This document shows, in pieces, positions 8,441 through 51,677 of a stretch of 64,000 nt of DNA. The position numbers and the translations under genes were made by a program. How positions within the stretch are numbered: position 1 is the first letter of the stretch; each line of letters begins with the position of its first letter. The notes under the pieces were generated by a model. It did no database searches and was not told where the DNA came from. It was given only the letters and a program-made list of their open reading frames with translations. This DNA is from Candidatus Nomurabacteria bacterium. Lineage in GTDB: Bacteria > Patescibacteriota > Minisyncoccia > Phycocordibacterales > UBA918. The DNA lies in the NCBI GenBank assembly GCA_020631995.1, contig JACKGJ010000001.1:97753-161752 (forward strand), in the 5' to 3' direction.

Positions 8441-8608
8441 GCTAGAATACTACCATCGTCAGTTAACGCTTGGATAAAAGCAGATTTTGAAATTTCGAGC
8501 GCAAAACAAGCTGGAATCCAAACTTTATCTAGATAAGGCTTGGATGAAGCGAAGTTTTGCAGCCGAAATTTCGAAATGTGTGTCCAATGGCTAATTGACG
8601 ATGGTATC
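8441..8608 (-). ncRNA. hairpin-rich leader/sRNA element, copy 1 (paralog of 32539-32750); a small ORF is the alternative
   Basis: About 165 nt folding into one long irregular hairpin (outer stem TACCATCGTCA/TGACGATGGTA, inner GAAATTTCG/CGAAATTTC, apical CTTATC-TA-GATAAG). Shares conserved blocks with the gatC-upstream copy. Starts just after an extended -10. Confidence 0.4.
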
Positions 8609-8638: not shown

Positions 8639-8755
8639 ATGAGTTTTCTATATAATCAAAAAACCAAAAAGGCTATAAAGTGGGTATGGATTGTGATTGC
8701 GACTTTGATTGCGATTAGTATGGTGTTTGCCTATTCTGGCGGCCTAGGAATCTAA
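8639..8755 (+). CDS. possible small hydrophobic peptide (38 aa)
   Basis: Own translation MSFLYNQKTKKAIKWVWIVIATLIAISMVFAYSGGLGI; below the track cutoff; no SD seen. Confidence 0.3.
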   Translation: MSFLYNQKTKKAIKWVWIVIATLIAISMVFAYSGGLGI

Positions 8756-8762
8756 AAAAGTT

Positions 8763-8868
8763 AAAACGGGAGAATTTGCATTCGCTTCAGCCAAATCCCT
8801 CCTGCACTATAGTTTTCTATGTTTTAGTCGTGACTTGTCCTCCAGCGAAAGCAACTTCATCCCGTTTT
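8763..8868 (-). repeat. rod-like palindromic element, family 2 (ATGAAGTTG...CTGAAGCGAA...CAAATTC core)
   Basis: Outer stem AAAACGGG/CCCGTTTT encloses a core whose reverse complement aligns with the elements at 39909-40021 and 46887-47065. Confidence 0.55.
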
Positions 8869-8927
8869 ATTCTTTTTAGAAAATATTTATCGAAATTAGC
8901 ACCACTGCCTCGGTTTTTGGCGTAATC

Positions 8928-10724: not shown

Positions 10725-10894
10725 GCACATCAGTTTACAGTTACCAGTTTTAGTTTCTAGTGACAACAGACTTTTTTCAAAAGTAGATGCAGATGTGCTG
10801 GTTGGAAGAATTTTGAGAGGAAGCCTTAGTTAACCTAAGGTGACTGAGCAAAATTCTGAAACCAGTGCAGATGTGCTAATTTTGAAAGAAAGGC

Positions 10895-16128: not shown

Positions 16129-16342
16129 TGGTGTGAGAAAGCTTACAGTGCTTTCGCAAGACCTTTTGAGATATTTTGTAATTCCGAGCTTGTCGAGGAA
16201 GAAACAAAATATACAAAAGGTGTACCGCATCCGTAGGATGAGGAAGCCTGGGAGGCTTTCGCAAGACCTTGCCTGACAATTTATGAGGCGTATAAGCCTC
16301 TATCAATAAATGTCGATAAGGTGTACAGCGACTGTAAGTCGC
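16129..16342 (-). repeat. two tandem copies of the family 1 hairpin core (not tRNA-linked)
   Basis: Minus-strand reads CATCC-TAC-GGATG-C-GGTACACC + long hairpin ACCTTTTGTATATTTTGT/ACAAAATATCTCAAAAGGT + GGTCTTGCGAAAGC..., and GCGAC-TTACA-GTCGC-T-GTACACC + ACCTTATCGACATTTAT/ATAAATTGTCAGGCAAGGT + GGTCTTGCGAAAGC... Confidence 0.65.
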
Positions 16343-25548: not shown

Positions 25549-26433
25549 TTACAGCTCACGCTCTGCGTCTATGAATTCCTGTATATTGCCGTTCAAAACT
25601 GCCTCAATATTGCGAACTTCCACACCTGTGCGGTGATCCTTAACCATCTGATAGGGATGTAGTACGTAGGAGCGAATCTGACTACCCCATTCGATTTTCA
25701 CGGTTTTTTCTACCGAAAGACCTTTAAGCTCTCTCTCCTTTTGCTCTTCAAGAAAGGCAAATACTTTCCCCGAGAGAAGAGCTAGTGCCTTATCACGATT
25801 TTGTTGTTGGCTACGTTCAGATGAGGTGTGAACAGTGAGTCCAGTTGGTCTATGTGTTGCTCGCACAGCCGTCTCACGCTTGTTCACGTTTTGTCCGCCC
25901 GCTCCCCCACTACGAGCAAAAGTAATTTCAACTTCGTCATCTGTTAAGGGAATTTCTTCTGACGTCTCTACGGCCGGAGAAACCTCGACAAGAGTGAAAG
26001 ACGTTTGTCTTTTATCATTGGCATTGAAAGGTGAGATACGTACTAAACGATGCACTCCACTTTCTCGCTTCAGAGTGCCGTACGCATCCTTACCAACGAT
26101 TTCAAATACAACGTTTCGATAACCACCATGATTGTTAGTATTCTGATCAAGCATCATTATCTGCCAACCACGGGTTTCTGCATAACGCTGATACATCTCT
26201 AGTAGAATGCGGGCAAAGTCTTCTGCATCATCCCCACCCGCTCCAGCCACGATAGTAAATACCGCACCAAGCCGGTCGTACTTACCCTTACCCTCTACTT
26301 CATCTTTAAGCAGTTGTAGCTCTTTTATCTGTGCTTGTGCGTCTTTTGGGTCATTCCAAAAATCAGCTCGAGTCATTTCGCGTTCTATCTCGGCAATTCT
26401 CTTTGCTACTTTAGATTTATCGTGAAGGGTCAT
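25549..26433 (-). CDS. prfB: peptide chain release factor 2 (short, 294 aa, no frameshift site)
   Basis: SPF tripeptide (RISPFNAND) and GGQ ([16 protein letters not shown]). Start at MTLHDKSK, 2 nt after the upstream stop. Confidence 0.85.
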
Positions 26434-26435
26434 AA

Positions 26436-26933
26436 TTAGATCGACGGAGAATACTGACGACCCATAGGTAGTGGCTCTGGTGTGACAGCCATAAGCCATT
26501 TAGAACATTTGCCTAGTTCATCACAGGTCCAACGCTTTTCAAACTCGGTGCGAGACAGACGTGTCTCTGGACCGTGCCATGGGTCATTTAAAAGCACTTC
26601 ATTATCAGAAAGACCGACAACTACCGCATAATGGTCTTCGTTATATTCTTTCTCTAGGTATCGGATGATACTCGGGGCTCTAAATGTAGTCAACAAATAT
26701 GAAATTTCTCCGAGCGTTGCCTCATTGTTCATATAAACATAAAAATCGTTTTGACGGGCAACCTCTAACATATGCTGTATTGAAGTGCCTTTATCTGAAG
26801 TAGTCTTTAATTGTTCAGATAGTGTTGATTCAGACTGACGCATTCCGTAATATGCTAAAACCATCTGCAGAGCAGTGGGGCCACAAGTGTATATTGTGTC
26901 TTGTTTGAAGTACGGAACTTGAAGGCTACGCAT
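26436..26933 (-). CDS. peptidase C39-like (papain-fold cysteine peptidase) domain protein
   Basis: [25 protein letters not shown] (catalytic Cys context) and DHYAVVVG (His). Confidence 0.7.
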
Positions 26934-28830: not shown

Positions 28831-29076
28831 AAAAGCAAAACTGTTTGCTTTTCACCGCTTGGCTACGGCATCGCTCCGGTCTTCAAGTCCCTATACCAGC
28901 AAAGCAGTTGTTTGTGAGGGGACTTGAAACTTACAGTTTCAGTACACCTTTTCGATATTCCCCTTCACAAGTTCTGGGAATATCTGAAAAGGTCTTCAAG
29001 TCCCACAAGACAGTTCCCCGAACTGTCTTTTTCGCTCACACAAAATAAAAGCCCCCATTAGGGGGCTTTTATTTTG
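28831..29076 (+). repeat. tRNA-Asp-linked composite element (family 1 core plus copies of the tRNA-Asp T-arm/acceptor 3' half)
   Basis: GAAACT-TAC-AGTTTC hairpin, GTACACC, long hairpin ACCTTTTCGATATTCCCC/GGGAATATCTGAAAAGGT. Then TTCAAGTCCC, a 26-nt hairpin and TTCGCTCACACAAAATA, which together are the reverse complement of tRNA-Asp nt ~29071-29096. Extra GGGACTTGAA/TTCAAGTCCC copies at 28882-28926. Confidence 0.7.
29044..29076. terminator. bidirectional terminator next to the tRNA-Asp 3' end
   Basis: AAATAAAAGCCCCCATTAGGGGGCTTTTATTTTG. Confidence 0.75.
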
Positions 29077-29221: not shown

Positions 29222-29384
29222 AATTTGTGTCGACGGGAGGGATGAAGCTTACAGCTTCCGTACACCTTTTCGATATTTCCTTTCATTACTTCAGGAAATA
29301 TCTGAAAAGGTCATCATTCTCTCCCGCGCACAAAATCACTCTTGCGCAAAGCTCCATGCATTCGCTTTACGCTCGGTGTTTTTG
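29222..29384 (+). repeat. tRNA-Met-linked composite element (family 1 core plus direct and inverted copies of the tRNA 3' half)
   Basis: 19-nt exact direct repeat TTTGTGTCGACGGGAGGGA at 29224-29242 and 29381-29399 (the latter inside the tRNA). GAAGCT-TAC-AGCTTC hairpin, GTACACC, 17-bp hairpin, then inverted copy TCATCATTCTCTCCCGCGCACAAAAT at 29311-29336. Confidence 0.7.
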
Positions 29385-29540: not shown

Positions 29541-29872
29541 TTGCGGGGCCTGGAATTGAACCAGGGTCTGGAGGTTCTGTTATTCGCTCACTTTCATGAG
29601 TGCATGGACTATCCCATATTCCTGGATTAAAATATCCTTAGGAACTCTCCATTATAGTCTCTGAACCTTCCGTCTGCTTTCGCAGAGGGCTTGGCTGCCG
29701 ATTGCCGAATCTTTACTTTTTTAAAGCATTCACACTCACCCTCTCAGGTCATGTTGTAGCAAGCAAAGCTCTAACGGTATTCCAGCAATTTAGAAGATTT
29801 TTCCATACCGCATTACTGCGATAGGTCACAGTTTCCTATGAGCCTCCCGAGGTACCACTCCTCTACCCCGCT
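29541..29872 (-). tRNA. tRNA(CAT) with initiator-like features, interrupted by a group I intron (exons 29872-29838 and 29576-29541)
   Basis: Spliced sequence gives AGCGGGG-TA-GAGG-AGTGGTA-CCTC-G-GGAGG-CTCATAA-CCTCC-AGAC-CCTGG-TTCAATT-CCAGG-CCCCGCA-A. Features: 1:72 mismatch (A:A) and A11:T24. Confidence 0.8.
29577..29837 (-). ncRNA. group I self-splicing intron (261 nt, no ORF) in the anticodon loop after CAU
   Basis: 5' exon ends in U and the intron ends in G. P1 UCAU/GUGA; P2 hairpin AUCGCA-GUAA-UGCGGU. Classical P/Q/R/S elements: AAAUUGCUGGAAU, AAUCGGCAGCC, GGUUCAGAGACUAUAAUGG, GGGAUAGUCC. Confidence 0.8.
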
Positions 29873-29974: not shown

Positions 29975-30115
29975 GCACGAGCCGTATATGGACATACGGT
30001 GTGAGAAAGTCTAGGAGACTTTTGCAAGAGGTTGGCAGCTATTCTGACGCAAGGAAGAATAGCGACAACCTAAACAGCTTCTGTAAGAAGTGACATTTTG
30101 TCGAAGCGTAACAAA
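29975..30115 (-). repeat. hybrid repeat: CGTATATGGACATACG hairpin (family 2) plus a divergent family 1 core
   Basis: GTGTGAGAAAGTCTAGGAGACTTTTGCAAGAGG parallels 16129-16160. Hairpin GGTTGGCAGCTATTC/GAATAGCGACAACC replaces P3. CTTC-TGTAA-GAAG replaces P2. Confidence 0.45.
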
Positions 30116-32538: not shown

Positions 32539-32750
32539 CTGTTAGAAATTATTGCTTACTTATATGAGCCCGCTCCAGCGAGAAAGATATACCATTTCCA
32601 GTTAACGCTCCTACATTAAAACCTTTCATAATTTCGAGCGAAAGACGAGCTGGAGTCCGAGCTTTATCTAAATAAGGCGAGGACGAAGCGAAGTTTTGTA
32701 GCCGAAATTCTGCAAGGTTTATGGGGTGTTTAACTGAGGATGGTATAGGT
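32539..32750 (-). ncRNA. hairpin-rich leader/sRNA element, copy 2 (paralog of 8441-8608)
   Basis: Conserved blocks ATACCATC, GAATTTCGGCTnCAAAACTTCGCTTC, CCTTATnTAGATAAAG, TCCAGCT, CGCTCGAAATT, AGCGTTAACTG, ATGGTA shared with copy 1. Outer stems ATACCAT/ATGGTAT and CAGTTAA/TTAACTG. Confidence 0.4.
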
Positions 32751-34778: not shown

Positions 34779-34861
34779 TTAACCTTGATTCTACCCTTAT
34801 TTTATAAGGAAAAAAAGCTCTGTTTCTCAGACAATTAGTTGAAACCTGCCCATTAGCTAAA

Positions 34862-35093
34862 CATCTAAAATTGGAGGCAGTTGTGCACCACAAGAGTACT
34901 TCCATTTTTATACTCCTTCCAGTCGTTAAAAATTTGGTCGTCGGTTGGAGGGATTTTTACGAGAGAGACGTATATAGATATACGGTGACTAAGACAACTT
35001 TCTGAAGCAAACGCATCACGGGCATTTCGTTTTTATAGTCGCACTGCGGCGCTCCTTAAAAACTAGTCACAATTCGCCCATTTGGGGGATTTA
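34862..35093 (+). repeat. family 2 rod-like element with extra module (shares a 46-nt identical block with 46914-46959)
   Basis: 34886-34931 is identical to 46914-46959 (CACCACAAGAGTACTTCCATTTTTATACTCCTTCCAGTCGTTAAAA). Contains CGTATATAGATATACG hairpin, CTGAAGC motif and CAATTCG end. Confidence 0.6.
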
Positions 35094-35096
35094 GTC

Positions 35097-35213
35097 TAAA
35101 CCTTAAAACTGGATGAGTGGCGAGGAGTTTAGGCGAACGAGTTGCGAGTGGGACATATTGTCCAACGAGCAACACGTTAGCCGTGACGACAAAGCCAGTC
35201 GCCAGTTTTAAGG
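35097..35213 (+). repeat. palindrome-ended element related to family 2
   Basis: 16-nt arms TAAACCTTAAAACTGG / CCAGTTTTAAGGTTTA enclose ATGAGTGGCGAGGAG...GGGACATATTGTCC...GACGACAAAG; abuts the stop of the last pilin-like gene. Confidence 0.5.
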
Positions 35214-35214
35214 T

Positions 35215-35871
35215 TTAGTACTCAATGGTGATTTCGCGTTGGATAGTGAAGATTGAATCCAACTGATCACAAGGTCGATTATAACCACGTGCAAAAATCA
35301 CTGTACAAATAGTTCCAGCGGTACATTCAATTGTTCCTAGCCCTTCATCAGTCAAATTATAAGAAAGGTCACTGTCAGCATCACGTAAGTCAGCAACATA
35401 AAGACTTGGTTCTGCACACTGGGTACTGTTTATAGTGTACTGATACTGATAGTTATATAAAAGACGGTCACTATTGTTAAACAGAGTAGTGGCTTGTACG
35501 CCAGGGGGGATATTCGGATTCATACCAGCACAAGCAACCGAAGGTGGCCAAGCGCCACTTTCTCTTAAAAATTGTTGCTTGGTTGTTGGTTGAGCTCTAT
35601 GATAACGCATACACTCGAGTCCGATCTGTGCTGACTGAAACGCTTTTTCTGATTCAATAGCAGTTACAGCCAAGAGATATTGTTTGGTTGTAACAAAGAG
35701 CAGTGATAGACCAATGGCCAGAACCACACTTACGACCACTAGAGTAATAAGTAGTGCAAAACCTCTGTTAGATTCTAGTTTTGTAGAAAGCCTGTTAGAG
35801 GAAAATAGCTTTGCATTTTTTTGCAAATGGGCAACTAAAAACTTTAAGTTAAAAACTGATTTAAGGTTCAT
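35215..35871 (-). CDS. PilX-like minor pilin / pilus-associated protein
   Basis: 218 aa; N-terminal NRGFALLITLVVVSVVLAIGLSLLF prepilin-like hydrophobic segment (no Glu5); last gene of the minor pilin set. Confidence 0.55.
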   Translation of the reverse strand: MNLKSVFNLKFLVAHLQKNAKLFSSNRLSTKLESNRGFALLITLVVVSVVLAIGLSLLFVTTKQYLLAVTAIESEKAFQSAQIGLECMRYHRAQPTTKQQFLRESGAWPPSVACAGMNPNIPPGVQATTLFNNSDRLLYNYQYQYTINSTQCAEPSLYVADLRDADSDLSYNLTDEGLGTIECTAGTICTVIFARGYNRPCDQLDSIFTIQREITIEY

Positions 35872-39283: not shown

Positions 39284-39685
39284 CTAACTAGCAGGACAAG
39301 CTGTTGATCCTGTAGTAATAGAGCTTGTGGTTGTAACAGCCTTTCCAGTCGAGTCAACACAGTACGAAGAAGTTGAAGCACTTGAAAGACCAGCGAAAGC
39401 TGCCCATACGTCAGCAGTGTCATTACACTCTCCACCAGCTGCAGTTACACCTTGTGCAACATTAGTGTCACTACAAACTCCTAAGTAACTACCACTGTTA
39501 TTATCGTAAAACAATTCAGCCTGTGCGCGAATGTTATTAAGGTTCGACTTTATGGCTGCGTCTTCTCCCTTGTCACGAGCACTGTTGAGTGAAGCCAACA
39601 CTACTGAGGCCAAAATACCAATGATGGCAATAACTACGAGGAGCTCGATGAGGGTGAAACCTCTTTTAAGTTTGTTCTTTATCAT
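39284..39685 (-). CDS. pilA: type IV major pilin paralog 1
   Basis: MIKNKLKRG/FTLIELLVVIAIIGILASVVLASLNSARDKG; C-terminal Cys pair. Confidence 0.85.
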   Translation of the reverse strand: MIKNKLKRGFTLIELLVVIAIIGILASVVLASLNSARDKGEDAAIKSNLNNIRAQAELFYDNNSGSYLGVCSDTNVAQGVTAAGGECNDTADVWAAFAGLSSASTSSYCVDSTGKAVTTTSSITTGSTACPAS

Positions 39686-39908
39686 ATAACTAATTATTTT
39701 ATAACTTTCCCGCTCCAGACATCAGCTGTGTGTCTCGAACAGAACATCCGTTTAATGGATACTATCAATTCTATAGCTATTCTTGGCCATTTTGTTCGAT
39801 GTGTGTGGATAAGACTAGTTTTTTAATGCTCTAGTTTTAAACTTAGAATGTAGTTTTGAAAAATCTGCATATAAACTTTCACAGTTGATCACGACTTAAA
39901 CTAACAGA

Positions 39909-40021
39909 GGATTTTTGGATGCAGTTGTACCAGCTACAAGGAGTTTCGTGCGGAAGGCGTATATGGACATACGACGACCAAGCGAAACGACTGAAGCTGG
40001 TGCAAATGCGCCGAAAATACC
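39909..40021 (+). repeat. family 2 rod-like element (compact copy) between pilC and the pilin gene
   Basis: GGATTTTTGG/CCGAAAATACC outer arms. ATGCAGTTGTACCAGC pairs with GCTGGTGCAAATGCG. Apical CGTATATGGACATACG hairpin. GACCAAGCGAAACGACTGAAGC core. Confidence 0.6.
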
Positions 40022-40023
40022 TG

Positions 40024-41232
40024 TTAGATTGAGGCGGTCATATTGTAGATAGGCAAAAGAACAGACGCCAACAAGGTTCCTACACCAAGACCAAGCATAA
40101 CAATCATTACTGGTTCAATCAGTCCAATCAAAGTGTCGACAGCATTGTTAACCTCACGTACGTAGAACGTTGCTAGTGTCTTCATAATTTCCGAAAGATT
40201 TCCAGTCTCTTCCCCAACTTTGGCCATCTGTGAAAGTACGCCAGGAATTTCAGGATATTCGGATAATGCATCAGCAAATGATCGTCCACCCTTAACTTCT
40301 ACTAAAGTATTTTGTAGGATTTCTTTATAGACAGCGTTGTCTACCACTTCAGCTGTAACTTCGAGTGCCTGCACCATAGAGATTCCACTTTGAAGCATTG
40401 TGGCTAAGTTGTCACAAATGCGGGCAAGATAAAGCTTTTGATAAAGGTCACCCAAATATGGCAAAGTGATTTTTAGCTCATCATAGGCTCGGAGTCCAAC
40501 TGGAGTTTTTATAAAACGCCAAAGGAACACTCCACCAATAGACGCAAGTGCTAATATCACTCCTATGTAATCAGTAAGGACAGTAGATATGGCTATGACA
40601 ATCTTTGTATAGATAGGCAATTCTTGACCGGAATCAAGAAGAATTTGACTAATACGAGGAATCACCATTGTTAGCATCAGACCCATCACAAGTATGAATA
40701 CACCAACAACGAAAGCTGGGTACACAAGAGCGTTTCGAGCTTTTGTTATCACCTGGTAGGTTCTGTCTAGATAATCCGCCAAGTAACCGAACGATTGTTC
40801 TAGAGAGCCAGACTCCTCACCAGCTCGTATCATATTTATATAGAAATCACTAAAGACATCGGGGTGTGCAGACATAGAACGTGAAATTGAACTACCAGCC
40901 TGCAAGTCATCGGCAATATCATTCAACACCTTTTGCATCTGCGGATTCTCAGCCTCAGTACCTAAAAGACGAAATATTCTAAGAGCAGACACCTGAGCAT
41001 CAAAAAGGGTGGCCAACTGACGGGACAGTATAACCACCTCCTTGTTTGATATACGTTGAAACCAATTAATTTCAAAATTTAAAAATTGTTGCTTCTCTTC
41101 TACCGGATCAATTGATATCACTGTATATCCGCGTTTTTGCACAGTCGCAATTGCAGCATCGATATTGCCAGCCTCGACAGTACCGTCACGCTTTACGTTA
41201 GTTTGGTCAATGGCTTTATAGGAGAACAACAT
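40024..41232 (-). CDS. pilC: type IV pilus platform protein PilC (GspF family)
   Basis: 402 aa; duplicated T2SS-F domain architecture with three TM segments. Confidence 0.9.
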   Translation of the reverse strand: MLFSYKAIDQTNVKRDGTVEAGNIDAAIATVQKRGYTVISIDPVEEKQQFLNFEINWFQRISNKEVVILSRQLATLFDAQVSALRIFRLLGTEAENPQMQKVLNDIADDLQAGSSISRSMSAHPDVFSDFYINMIRAGEESGSLEQSFGYLADYLDRTYQVITKARNALVYPAFVVGVFILVMGLMLTMVIPRISQILLDSGQELPIYTKIVIAISTVLTDYIGVILALASIGGVFLWRFIKTPVGLRAYDELKITLPYLGDLYQKLYLARICDNLATMLQSGISMVQALEVTAEVVDNAVYKEILQNTLVEVKGGRSFADALSEYPEIPGVLSQMAKVGEETGNLSEIMKTLATFYVREVNNAVDTLIGLIEPVMIVMLGLGVGTLLASVLLPIYNMTASI

Positions 41233-45964: not shown

Positions 45965-46729
45965 TTATTGATTGACTTCTACAGTGGACGTTGCAACTAT
46001 CTGCTCATTATCAGTCACAGGGGGAGCTACAGAATCCGTCGTAGAAGTAGCGCTATCGATTATCACTATGTTTTCCATATCTTCCCCTACCTCCACATTT
46101 GTTACAACTCCAGTCTCTTGTGCGGGCTGATAAGCGATACTAGATATGTCCCTCGTGTCTGAGAAGACGAATGACAGCGTGGCTGAACCGAGTAAGTTAT
46201 TAGTGCCACCCTCTCCCCCACCTATACTGTAATCATACTCAATGACTTTAGCTTCTTTAAGCAAACTACTATTACCAAGAAGATTACGTTGACTAATTAT
46301 TTCGGTGAAATTATCTGCACGACCAGTTAAATCAATTTGGAATTTATTATTTGGTAAGTGCTGATAATGCATACCAGAAAAATAAATATTGGAAGCAACT
46401 ATCGCCTCAATGTCGTCAAAAATACGTGACGGTGCAGAAGAATTATTCAAAAGCGCTTCGGCAGTAGCTAGCCTCTTATGCAGTTGCTTAATACTCTCGA
46501 TGTCACCCAAAGAGAATCTTTGCCTTTCTACTACCAATTGATCCCGCAGTGAAGAAACATCTCGATTCACTATCGCTCCATACGCATACACTCCAATGAC
46601 TGAGAACAACGTACTAAAAAAAACTATATAGCTTATATAAGCCAATATATAGATACGCCGAGTACTCTTAGTGCGTTGCACTGTTTTTACTCCGCTCTTT
46701 GGTATAAAAGAAGTACCTTCAGATGCCAT
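45965..46729 (-). CDS. pilN: PilN-like pilus assembly protein
   Basis: 254 aa; basic N-terminus, single TM (IYILAYISYIVFFSTLFSVIGVYAYGAIV), coiled coil; TATAAT 9 nt upstream of ATG. Confidence 0.55.
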   Translation of the reverse strand: MASEGTSFIPKSGVKTVQRTKSTRRIYILAYISYIVFFSTLFSVIGVYAYGAIVNRDVSSLRDQLVVERQRFSLGDIESIKQLHKRLATAEALLNNSSAPSRIFDDIEAIVASNIYFSGMHYQHLPNNKFQIDLTGRADNFTEIISQRNLLGNSSLLKEAKVIEYDYSIGGGEGGTNNLLGSATLSFVFSDTRDISSIAYQPAQETGVVTNVEVGEDMENIVIIDSATSTTDSVAPPVTDNEQIVATSTVEVNQ

Positions 46730-46738
46730 ATGTATTTC

Positions 46739-46744
46739 ATTATA
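46739..46744 (-). promoter_or_regulatory. -10 box (TATAAT) 9 nt upstream of the pilN-like ATG
   Basis: Minus-strand read GGCGTATAATGAAATACATATGGCA. Confidence 0.45.
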
Positions 46745-46886
46745 CGCCTACTCTGCAAATCGCTTTTATACTCTCTGTGGACAAGGTTTATAAACACTGG
46801 ACGTTCAGTCACTGCAACTTCACCTACCCCTGCGACCATACAGACAACTTTTGTAAAATTAAAATGAGGATGTGACATTATCTAAT

Positions 46887-47065
46887 AAATCCTCCAAATG
46901 AGATGAAGTTGTTCACCACAAGAGTACTTCCATTTTTATACTCCTTCCAGTCGTTAAAACTTTGGTCGTTTGCTGGAGGGAGGACTACGCGGAAGACGTA
47001 GAAAGAACTACGGCGACCAAGTAGTCCGACTGAAGCGAAGACAAATTCGCTCATTTGGAGGATTT
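46887..47065 (+). repeat. family 2 rod-like element (long copy) between pilM and pilN
   Basis: Perfect 16-nt arms AAATCCTCCAAATGAG / CTCATTTGGAGGATTT. ATGAAGTTG...GACCAAG...GACTGAAGCGAAGACAAATTCG core. 46-nt block identical to 34886-34931. Overlaps the pilM stop by 2 nt. Confidence 0.65.
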
Positions 47066-48161
47066 ATTGGAACTTGCGGAGCGCGGCGCCTAACGCCACC
47101 CCAAAAGATGGACCAATCTCCTTAAGGGTATCCTCCATAAATGCTGGATAAGCAACCTTGGCAAAGGGATGAGATAACTCTACAGGCCGAGCAAAGCGGT
47201 CTTTAATATATTCCAAAGCGTACGGAGACGCAGAAACGCCACCCGTAATAACGATACGACCAATCTGCTCATTCAAACGAGCTTCGTACTGTCCAATCAA
47301 TCTACCGAATTCAGAAAGTGAAGTTTCAAGAACTGAAGTCATACACTGATGTATGACCGGACCTTGTTCAACATTTCGATCAAAAGAACGTTTCTGATTT
47401 TCTGCGTCTTCAAAATTTATATTTAAACGCTCTGCAACCAATCGTGTTATTTCACGACCACCTTGACCAACACGATGCAGTCGTTCCAGCATACCACCAC
47501 GCACAATGTACAACTTAGAACTCTTCGCACCAATATCAATAACAGCGAGTGTTGTATCCTTCTGTCTCCACAGAGCCCGAATCAAACTAAACGCTTCTAT
47601 TTCCGCCGCTTCTCCTGTCATACCGATTGAAGAAAATAGTTCTCGGTGTTCTGCTAGGGCTTTATTTTCTATAGCAGCGATGAGTACTTCTTTAAAATTA
47701 CTTTTGTTCTCACCCACTGACGGCAGTTCAGACCAATCAAGCGTAACGTCTGTTAGAGGTAGCGGTACATACTTCCGTGCCTCTACTGGAATACGTGTAG
47801 TGATATCTTCTTGTGGACCGATAGCAACTGGAATGACGGTTAAAAAGCTGGAATAGAGAGACATAGCTAAAGCACCGCTGTGTCCCGTGACTCCAGATTC
47901 ACGGATGACGTCTGTCACAGCTTCTACTTTTTTATCTTTCGGCAAATTCACTATCTCGCCTAAAGGTTTAGCATCATAAGGACCGAGCTGTAACTCACCA
48001 TAAGTGCGCAACATTACAGTACGTGGCGTCTCTTCTATCTCCACAACCTTTATAGAAGCGCTACCAATATCAATACCTACAGTAGTTGGACCAGCGTCTT
48101 TCGCCACCTTTTTCACTCCCCCAAAGATTTTTTTAAAAGAAAAGACCATACTTTGTAACAA
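47064..48161 (-). CDS. pilM: type IV pilus assembly protein PilM (actin-like ATPase fold)
   Basis: 365 aa; VGIDIGSASIKVVEIEE phosphate-1 motif, VIDIGAKSSKLYIV, ITGGVS. Confidence 0.85.
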   Translation of the reverse strand: MLQSMVFSFKKIFGGVKKVAKDAGPTTVGIDIGSASIKVVEIEETPRTVMLRTYGELQLGPYDAKPLGEIVNLPKDKKVEAVTDVIRESGVTGHSGALAMSLYSSFLTVIPVAIGPQEDITTRIPVEARKYVPLPLTDVTLDWSELPSVGENKSNFKEVLIAAIENKALAEHRELFSSIGMTGEAAEIEAFSLIRALWRQKDTTLAVIDIGAKSSKLYIVRGGMLERLHRVGQGGREITRLVAERLNINFEDAENQKRSFDRNVEQGPVIHQCMTSVLETSLSEFGRLIGQYEARLNEQIGRIVITGGVSASPYALEYIKDRFARPVELSHPFAKVAYPAFMEDTLKEIGPSFGVALGAALRKFQ

Positions 48162-50216: not shown

Positions 50217-50471
50217 ATGCCAAAAGCTAATTCAGCGTTTATGAAGCCAATGAACATCAGTCCAGAGTTGGCTGAGGTAGTTGGAAAAGGTCCAATGCCA
50301 CGTTCAGAGGTAGTAAAGGCCATCTGGGTCTACATCAAGAAGCACGATTTACAAAATCCTCAGAATAAACGAAATATCCTCGCTGACGACAAACTAAAGC
50401 CTGTCTTTGGTGGGAAGGACGAGGTAACAATGTTTGAGATGACTAAACTCGTCTCAGCACACCTCTCGTAA
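50217..50471 (+). CDS. SWIB/MDM2 domain protein
   Basis: 84 aa; ISPELAEVVGKGPMPRSEVVKAIWVYIKKHDLQNPQNKRNILADDKLKPVFG matches the SWIB consensus. Confidence 0.8.
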   Translation: MPKANSAFMKPMNISPELAEVVGKGPMPRSEVVKAIWVYIKKHDLQNPQNKRNILADDKLKPVFGGKDEVTMFEMTKLVSAHLS

Positions 50472-50610
50472 TTTATTCCAAAGTTGGCGCAGGGCTTGTT
50501 GTTCCTTCGCTAAAAACCTTGCTGGAGTTTTTCTCCCACTCGGTTTCTAGCTTCAGTCCACAACTTCGCCTTGCATCCAATTTTGAAACAAATTGTAATT
50601 TGAGACAAAG

Positions 50611-51493: not shown

Positions 51494-51677
51494 ATGGAAA
51501 TTTATTTACATTTCCGAACGAACGCTGAAAGAAAGCTTGCTTACAGAGCAGTACACCTTTTGGATATTTTATTTCACTTTGCTCATAAACTATCTCAAAA
51601 GGTCTTCGAATCCCTCCTTTTCTCGCAGAATATAATCACAAAAAGCTCCGAGCATTCGCTTTTTGTTCTTTATTCTG
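51494..51677 (+). repeat. tRNA-Ser(GCU)-linked composite element
   Basis: GTACACC plus hairpin ACCTTTTGGATATTTTAT/ATAAACTATCTCAAAAGGT. Then TTCGAATCCCTCCTTTTC(t)CGCAGAATA at 51605-51632, a near-perfect reverse complement of tRNA nt 51671-51697. Loop motif AAGCTCCGAGCATTCGCTTT shared with the Met locus. Confidence 0.7.

Follow-up and report, generated by a model that had tools for sequence, protein, structure and literature searches.

What is a strongly folding inverted repeat doing at the very end of pilM in a member of the Patescibacteria (candidate phyla radiation, CPR), whose genomes are tiny and streamlined and in which repeats are thought to be rare? The element in question, here called copy A, lies beside the pilM stop codon in a 64-kb stretch of contig JACKGJ010000001.1 (hereafter the window, which always means the whole stretch). 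Our analysis places it in a family of hairpin repeats in the Patescibacteria that is apparently undescribed. We tentatively read copy A as a member of a non-autonomous, strand-specific family of mobile hairpins, resembling REPINs and miniature inverted-repeat transposable elements (MITEs), which targets gene ends in Kaiserbacteria and related Patescibacteria; this is the account that we favour, and it could well be wrong.

The window holds seven related hairpins (copies A to G, identified with BLAST, nhmmer and a covariance model), and the repeat family makes up about 1.5% of its length. The copies that a first-pass annotation of the bare sequence had placed near 8763-8868 and 39909-40021, and its block at 34886-34931, are all present, and copies E, F and G (Table 1) go beyond its list. 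Family members, hereafter rods, measure 110-240 nt, with a short form of 105-135 nt, and those within one genome are 60-80% identical. The covariance model R1, built from 12 short copies, retrieves 27 copies at E<=1e-12 across loci of the Patescibacteria, the relatives of the window being Candidatus Kaiserbacteria and other members of the phylum. A degenerate pattern made from the conserved boxes gives 10 matches in a one-genome-per-species collection, 9 of them in Patescibacteria, and also matches 12 JGI metagenome contigs. Partial or tandem rods stand directly beside complete ones (F next to B in the window; L016 6950-7090; L018 1795-1908), and rod ends seem to attract further rods or to offer them a new target. 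Rfam 15 has no match at its gathering threshold at any copy in the window, and around copy A and L016 gives only chance-level matches (E>0.4). BLAST against plasmid and phage collections found no match to the repeat, and a pattern scan of viral contigs produced chance matches only. No description was found in the literature on repeats or structured RNAs in Patescibacteria, the coverage of which was incomplete, so that an earlier description is possible.

The short form of the element folds as a single long, imperfect hairpin. At its base is an outer arm of 8-18 nt, rich in A/T, followed inward by a conserved helix in which GATGMAGTTG faces CAAATKCGC and which contains a bulged A, a T.G wobble and a G.A mismatch. 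Next come a 7-bp helix that covaries, internal loops rich in purines (TGGAGG against CTGAAGC), another covarying helix, a symmetric loop (SSAAG / S'S'AAG) and, at the tip, a CGTAT...ATACG hairpin. Covariation spans the whole stem and is overwhelming with 27 copies, among the clearest one could wish for. In the 27-copy alignment, which was fitted to the model and therefore gives somewhat inflated pairing figures, 93.9% of paired cells pair, compared with 69.9% in column shuffles (0 of 500 reach the observed value) and 35-44% in slid registers, and 40 of 46 pairs have changed on both sides. An alignment of 12 copies made independently of the model (MAFFT/RNAalifold) has compensated changes in 31 of 46 pairs. 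The outer helix is 93.4% paired, with double changes in 28 of 31 pairs. The first-pass annotation had proposed just such a structured repeat family with covarying arms, unlike classical MITE terminal repeats, and with 27 copies this stands; the copies neither lack covariation nor are recent identical duplicates, the two outcomes which the annotation had named against itself. Its statement that the outer arms differ and stay complementary also holds, but "completely" different was too strong, as many of them share a loose consensus, AAAACTTCCAAAATGAG. An isolated copy of the apical hairpin, CGTATATGGACATACG, occurs outside any rod at 29980-29998.

The rods are found in one kind of place. In all 26 copies with a scorable flanking ORF (open reading frame), the outermost paired base lies between -11 and +11 nt from the first base of a stop codon, and in 17 of the 26 between 0 and +6 nt. 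The abutted stop is TAA in 20-21 of these copies, as against 18 of the 35 window genes, the remainder of which use TGA (9) or TAG (8). The 3' end of the folding strand is set against the stop of an opposite-strand gene in every scorable copy, and orientation is fixed relative to the abutted gene. Copies D and G abut plus-strand genes, which are on the lagging strand, and are inverted accordingly; orientation thus tracks the gene and not the direction of replication. Five of the seven folding strands in the window lie on the leading-strand template. D and G were considered as exceptions to the orientation rule, which was rejected since each abuts a plus-strand gene (an ORF of 38 aa for D and the SWIB gene for G). 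The genes abutted are ordinary core genes, namely pilM, pilC, murJ, a SWIB-domain gene and pilin-like genes, and ligA and lepA are neighbours on the rods' far side. Copy G lies upstream of a conserved canonical terminator. The 38-aa ORF beside D (8639-8755, plus strand) is unannotated and encodes a lysine-rich N-terminus and one hydrophobic helix; the DNA around it is 90% identical in UBA6201. As for gene starts in the window, a TAnnnT box is found 10-20 nt before the ATG in 23 of 35 genes, which suggests leaderless mRNAs, and a motif resembling a Shine-Dalgarno (SD) sequence precedes only 2 of the 35.

The first-pass annotation took the gene-sense strand for the structured one. Our analysis points to the other strand, on which pairing has been kept. 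Read in the GATGMAGTTG orientation, the alignment contains 117 G:U cells against 17 A:C cells (57 against 16 without the three conserved wobble positions), and the strand with this orientation is the more stable in 28 of 28 copies under RNA parameters (by 15 kcal/mol on average) and in 28 of 29 under DNA parameters (mean 6.3 kcal/mol). Relative to the abutted gene, the strand that folds strongly is the antisense one. On the plus strand, GC skew is negative throughout the window, and a mutational bias linked to replication would be expected to favour A:C on that strand, the opposite of what is observed; because such a bias would act the other way, we infer that the strand asymmetry reflects constraint and not mutation. 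A promoter search upstream of the folding strand gave no consistent signal.

Copy A itself is a long form. As the first-pass annotation had it, the 16-nt outer arms are perfectly complementary and the right arm overlaps the pilM stop by 2 nt. When extended, the pairing reaches 22 nt at 95% (46881-46902 / 47050-47071); the stop is a TAA, and the gene encodes a PilM_2 domain (Pfam, E=1.8e-31). The G/A mismatch seen between GATGAAGTTG and CAAATTCG is likewise real, and is conserved across the family (alignment A2, column 29 G against column 112 A). Both strands fold far better than shuffled sequence (plus strand -78.1 kcal/mol, z -9.5; minus strand -71.7 kcal/mol, z -8.0). The description "rod-like" does not fit copy A, however, as its minimum-energy fold is branched and the rod is broken by a nested insertion of about 55 nt. 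This insertion stands directly after GATGMAGTTG in copies A and B and is lacking from the short forms. Between A and B it is 98% identical, compared with about 70% for the surrounding rods; a third copy occupies the same internal site in the pilC rod of L034, and a fourth the paired position in the 3' half of B. Its recurrence at these sites indicates that it is a separate small module which nests in rods at a fixed internal site. The 46-nt block that the annotation had recognized as shared with 34886-34931 is part of this module (34884-34941, 98% over 56 nt). Small dispersed repeats (SDRs) nested in other repeats were reportedly described in Nostoc by Elhai et al. in 2008. The resemblance to the module in A, B and L034, a tiny unit at a fixed place inside another repeat, is one of analogy only, as organisms, sequences and sizes differ. 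Two independent short-read assemblies that carry the same pilM (Logan contigs L002 and L003) stop 134 nt past its stop codon, inside the nested 46-nt module; the repeat breaks short-read assemblies.

Comparison of orthologous sites, taken from PilM homologs and their contigs, shows that copies come and go. A long-form rod stands at the pilM stop in the window and a short-form one, of a different subtype, in the distant L016; the site is empty in L033 (91% PilM identity), L034 (86%), L035 (75%) and L036 (72%). At the pilC stop, the window, L034 and L036 each have a different rod, and L033 and L035 have none. The lepA stop has a rod in UBA6201 and is empty in the window. At the SWIB stop, rod G separates the TAA from a canonical bidirectional terminator, and this terminator is conserved in four rod-free relatives. 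These empty sites in related genomes mean that copies have been gained or lost, and since the protein C-termini are unchanged at pilM, pilC, lepA and SWIB, the insertion point is the stop codon itself. The same distinctive arm subtype is found at different loci in different genomes with 79-80% identity and unrelated flanks, so the arms belong to the moving unit. Two other readings of such data were rejected: C, L011:7744 and L029:3763 are not orthologs, as their abutted genes differ, and the outer arms are not host terminator stems with a core inserted in the loop, as they are A/T-rich, share a loose consensus and travel to other loci. The recent insertions A and G already follow the rules of orientation and strand, which argues that the rules belong to the element and its integration and not to slow local adaptation. 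No direct repeat that could be a target-site duplication is present at the junctions of about 22 copies, nor is there a duplication between the filled and empty sites at pilM, pilC, lepA and SWIB, where a 2-nt TA would merge with the arms and cannot be excluded. The filled and empty sites gave no clean reconstruction of the exact target, the intergenic DNA being too diverged. The coordinates of all copies and of the parts of copy A are collected in Table 1.

Table 1. Rods of the window, parts of copy A and the genes next to it, in window coordinates; for the rods, the strand given is the one that folds strongly.
Feature	Position	Strand	Remarks
Copy A, whole element, long form	46887-47065	+	Strongly folding strand is antisense to pilM
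Copy A, 5' outer arm AAATCCTCCAAATGAG	46887-46902	+	Outer helix covaries across 27 copies
Copy A, conserved box GATGAAGTTG	46902-46911	+	Bulged A, T.G wobble and G.A mismatch against CAAATTCGC
Copy A, nested insertion module of about 55 nt	46912-46969	+	Contains 46-nt block 46914-46959; minus strand carries GGAAGGAG and the MEVLLW string
Copy A, core rod	46970-47049	+	GCTGGAGGGAGG at 46972-46983; apical hairpin CGTAGAAAGAACTACG at 46997-47012
Copy A, core rod box CTGAAGC	47030-47036	+	
Copy A, core rod box CAAATTCGC	47042-47050	+	
Copy A, 3' outer arm CTCATTTGGAGGATTT	47050-47065	+	2-nt overlap with pilM stop 47064-47066
pilM	47064-48149	-	TAA stop abutted by copy A
pilN-like gene	45965-46729	-	Outside the element; start ATG 46727-46729, TATAAT 46739-46744, TTGTCCACA 46776-46784
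Copy B, long form	34860-35095	+	Two nested modules; adjoins copy F
Copy C, short form	39905-40025	+	Abuts stop of pilC (T2SSF)
Copy D	8756-8876	-	Abuts stop of 38-aa plus-strand ORF 8639-8755
Copy E	10770-10890	+	Abuts murJ stop
Copy F, diverged subfamily	35098-35217	+	16-nt perfect arms; right arm holds stop of gene 35215-35871
Copy G, diverged subfamily	50473-50593	-	Abuts stop of plus-strand SWIB gene (50217-50471)

If copy A is a mobile hairpin of the kind that we favour, its family would spread via a folded single-stranded intermediate of the antisense strand, which could be single-stranded DNA (ssDNA), as for REPIN/RAYT, IS200/IS605 or integron attC sites, or possibly cDNA or RNA, and integration would be strand-specific and beside TAA. 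The spacers of these compact genomes are filled by leaderless promoters and terminators, and insertions may survive at the stop codon alone; this survival would fix both position and orientation. The gene's own mRNA would carry the element passively, as a weaker hairpin in the 3' untranslated region (3'-UTR), and its influence, if any, on message stability or on antisense transcription entering the gene would be secondary.

REPINs are the nearest precedent for mobile hairpins with compensatory changes. Like the rods, they are non-autonomous, multi-copy, extragenic hairpins that persist for long, are inherited vertically and leave no target duplication; compensatory changes in the hairpin have been documented for them (PMC3116915) and are present in the rods, and for both a single-strand, strand-specific mechanism is plausible. 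The differences lie in the layout. REPINs have conserved REP 25-mers at their ends and a variable spacer, whereas the rods have variable A/T-rich ends with the conserved GATGMAGTTG/CAAATKCGC boxes inside, and lack the GTAG/CGTC tag of REPINs. A strict position at stops and an orientation set by the gene, both of which the rods have, are not described for REPINs, and the rods' host phylum is the Patescibacteria. With classical MITEs, the rods share small size, multiple copies (7 in 64 kb, at least 27 across loci) and presence/absence polymorphism (at four sites). They depart from them in having arms that vary between copies with compensation, where classical MITEs have terminal repeats common to all copies and to the parent insertion sequence, and in lacking the target-site duplication. 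ERIC and Correia elements are also imperfect palindromes of 100-160 nt in transcribed intergenic DNA, with long forms that arise from insertions at fixed internal sites. However, they have no sequence similarity to the rods, which lack a TA duplication, and they occur in both orientations at variable distance from genes with terminal repeats that are conserved and not covarying.

Several observations weigh against the mobile hairpin that we favour. The 25 window proteins scanned, a small sample per genome, include no transposase, RAYT, integrase or reverse transcriptase; no RAYT-type gene appears in the scanned proteins or in the Pfam lists of L033-L036 (about 64 kb of the window genome and 8-21-kb pieces of the others), and no longer element with the same ends is present in about 209 kb. 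Copies within a genome are old, at 60-80% identity, and there is no group of recent, nearly identical ones, the nested module excepted. Copy D differs from its UBA6201 ortholog at 6 of 134 positions, in neighbouring DNA that is 79-90% identical, which suggests constraint in situ and possibly a host function. A 3-nt target alone cannot explain why 26 of 26 scorable copies lie at stops, and the argument from selection is one that we infer. Finally, the pilM and pilC gene ends have been struck repeatedly, which hints at selection or at a richer target.

In an alternative that we consider unlikely, the rods belong to a class of mobile or recombination elements that is itself new, acts on one strand and integrates by a mechanism coupled to the ends of genes. 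Such an element may be an ssDNA- or cDNA-hairpin that recognizes a state of DNA or RNA where translation or transcription ends, or it may be an attC-like site system on core genes outside integrons. Either version would explain why every scorable copy, recent ones included, is at a stop with an antisense folding strand. 

In kind, the rods are bacterial interspersed repeats of the hairpin type, and what sets them apart is strict stop abutment with an antisense folding strand, termini that covary where others are conserved, and a nested second module. To our knowledge, the stop-abutting, antisense-folding rule has not been described for REP, ERIC, Correia or other bacterial repeats.

Host function could also account for the position, and two such explanations have to be weighed, neither of which we consider probable. 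The first is that the rod is a host-selected insulator or terminator, in which a hairpin in antisense RNA halts incoming transcription at the stop and so shields the gene, whether that transcription is convergent read-through or divergent from the leaderless promoter of the next gene. In its favour, every copy folds on the strand antisense to the gene that it abuts, most genes have their own -10 box near the ATG, and copy D is more conserved than its flanks. At the convergent pairs, read-through from lepA would enter D in the sense direction, with GUUUUAACUUUUUU following D, and G likewise faces tRNA genes. However, the rods at SWIB and in L011, L014 and L018 have a GC-rich bidirectional terminator of the canonical kind on their distal side, which would stop incoming transcription earlier, many copies have no U-tract after the 3' arm, and a terminator scan was empty at copy A. 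The rods moreover differ from intrinsic terminators in having stems of at least 45 pairs with A/T-rich bases, the canonical terminators being separate from them and distal, and a role in termination leaves their conserved internal loops and length of 110-135 nt unexplained. Overall, we think it rather improbable.

The second is a cis element acting in the gene-sense mRNA, a 3'-UTR hairpin at the stop which, much like ERIC or REP elements near stops, stabilizes or destabilizes the message or is processed by RNase III/E; this comes close to the first-pass annotation's idea of processing at the hairpin base. The rods are co-transcribed with the upstream gene, since they lie between its stop and the terminator; the gene-sense strand still folds strongly, as seen in copy A, and the outer arms of 16-22 bp are Watson-Crick paired on both strands. 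An orientation-dependent effect close to stop codons has a precedent in ERIC (PMC2229807). We nevertheless find this explanation quite doubtful, as the substitutions keep pairing on the other strand, so that the 117 G:U cells become C.A mismatches in the mRNA, the fold in the mRNA sense is weaker by 15 kcal/mol on average, and close relatives have no rod at the same genes.

A third possibility, which appears very unlikely, is that the rods are attC-like sites for single-strand recombination, at which a tyrosine recombinase would read the folded bottom strand and make rod-tailed genes excisable or exchangeable. The sites of integrons (e.g., the Vibrio cholerae repeats) are imperfect palindromes that are defined by structure and lie after the stop of an ORF in fixed orientation (PMC2727003, PMC5027507, PMC5371416), with a functional bottom strand antisense to the ORF and extrahelical or mismatched bases. 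All of this, and a length like that of attC, is matched by the rods, although the resemblance is one of layout only. The five of seven folding strands on the leading-strand template also agree with what is seen in sedentary chromosomal integrons (PMC5371416). The rod termini often read AAAC...GTTT, reminiscent of RYYYAAC/GTTRRRY. Yet these ends occur in roughly 11-12 of 27 copies, fewer than half (column pair 11-134 is C-G in 11 of 27), and the full consensus fits only copy C. Where attC has an R box plus an unpaired spacer, the rods have a long, perfect outer stem and no unpaired central spacer near its base. Integron sites come in cassette arrays with intI and attI, whereas the rods are irregularly spaced, form no cassette array, and stand beside housekeeping genes with their own promoters and conserved synteny (pilM, pilC, lepA, murJ, ligA and a SWIB-domain gene), and no integrase is found among the scanned proteins.

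The last explanation, that the nested block encodes a translated 6-codon peptide (MEVLLW) with a strong SD that couples or regulates pilM and pilN, can be set aside. The string proposed by the first-pass annotation is indeed there on the minus strand of A (GGAAGGAG at 46941-46948, N7, then ATGGAAGTACTCTTGTGGTGA at 46913-46933) and recurs in B without its stop, a loss that the annotation had already seen, but three of the four module copies lack its start or its stop (ATG is ATA in L034, and the second module of B differs), rod-spanning ORFs change frame between copies, SD-like motifs are almost unused in the window, and pilN appears to have its own promoter. If copy A is a mobile hairpin, the SD and mini-ORF would be a by-product of the module's purine-rich motifs. 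The annotation had also placed the element next to pilN, inside a pilM-pilN operon, and both statements need correction. The pilN-like gene starts at 46729, behind TTGTCCACA-N31-TATAAT-N10-ATG, a signal conserved in six genomes, and four closer relatives carry no element there. This promoter-like signal, predicted downstream of copy A, would leave the element in the 3' region of pilM and outside any translationally coupled pilM-pilN unit.

Two further candidates for coding or translation signals were rejected. GGAGGA in the 3' arm is not an SD for the ATG at 46878, as the 63-aa ORF 46687-46878 is spurious and pilN starts at 46729; and a MIRU-like coupling ORF (58 aa, starting from ATGAGC and ending in TAATG) is contradicted by the ATG being absent in half of the copies and by differing frames. 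Public gene calls nonetheless carry a 58-aa ORF through the element (L001 11096-11272, corresponding to window 46878-47054, minus strand), ending in TAATG, which is an artefact of the pyrimidine-rich, stop-poor gene-sense strand. Upstream of pilN, a TT(G/A)TCCACA box (46776-46784, minus strand) lies about 40-60 nt before the start and is conserved in six genomes, L033-L036 and L016 among them, and a box TTATCCACA lies upstream of the pilin gene 39284-39685. Together, the two boxes are a candidate operator of a type IV pilus regulon, as judged from the sequence.

The window contains a few other features. A repeat of 157 nt with 74% identity is present at 8451-8607 and 32590-32746, each copy with a minus-strand ORF of 62 or 69 aa that shares FRLQNFASS.PYLDK; neither copy has an Rfam match, and either a small protein with paralogues or an RNA not yet annotated could underlie the repeat. 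A different hairpin repeat, about 74 nt long, borders the tRNA genes of two clusters (28925-28998, 29243-29316 and 51549-51614), and short hairpin repeats, TGAGAAAGCTTACAGTGCTTTCGCAAGACCTT, are found at 16134-16165, 16239-16270 and 30002-30033. Beside the tRNA cluster lies a group I intron (29585-29849, minus strand; Rfam, 61 bits), which fits the group I introns reported in tRNA genes of Patescibacteria (PMC13011429). A cyanobacterial origin of the window, suggested by this intron and the pil genes, was rejected, since the contig belongs to a Patescibacteria MAG. An RF2-like gene (PCRF and RF-1 domains) and an ORF upstream of it overlap in different frames (25549-26499 and 26436-26933, minus strand), which is probably the classical +1 programmed frameshift of prfB.

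For the genomes that carry them, the rods have practical consequences, as they interrupt short-read assemblies and create spurious ORF calls such as the 58-aa "gene", and a covariance model is now ready for the annotation of CPR genomes. If the rule of stop abutment and antisense folding is mechanistic, it points to a hitherto unknown means by which gene ends are targeted, or to recombination of single strands by a system other than integrons.

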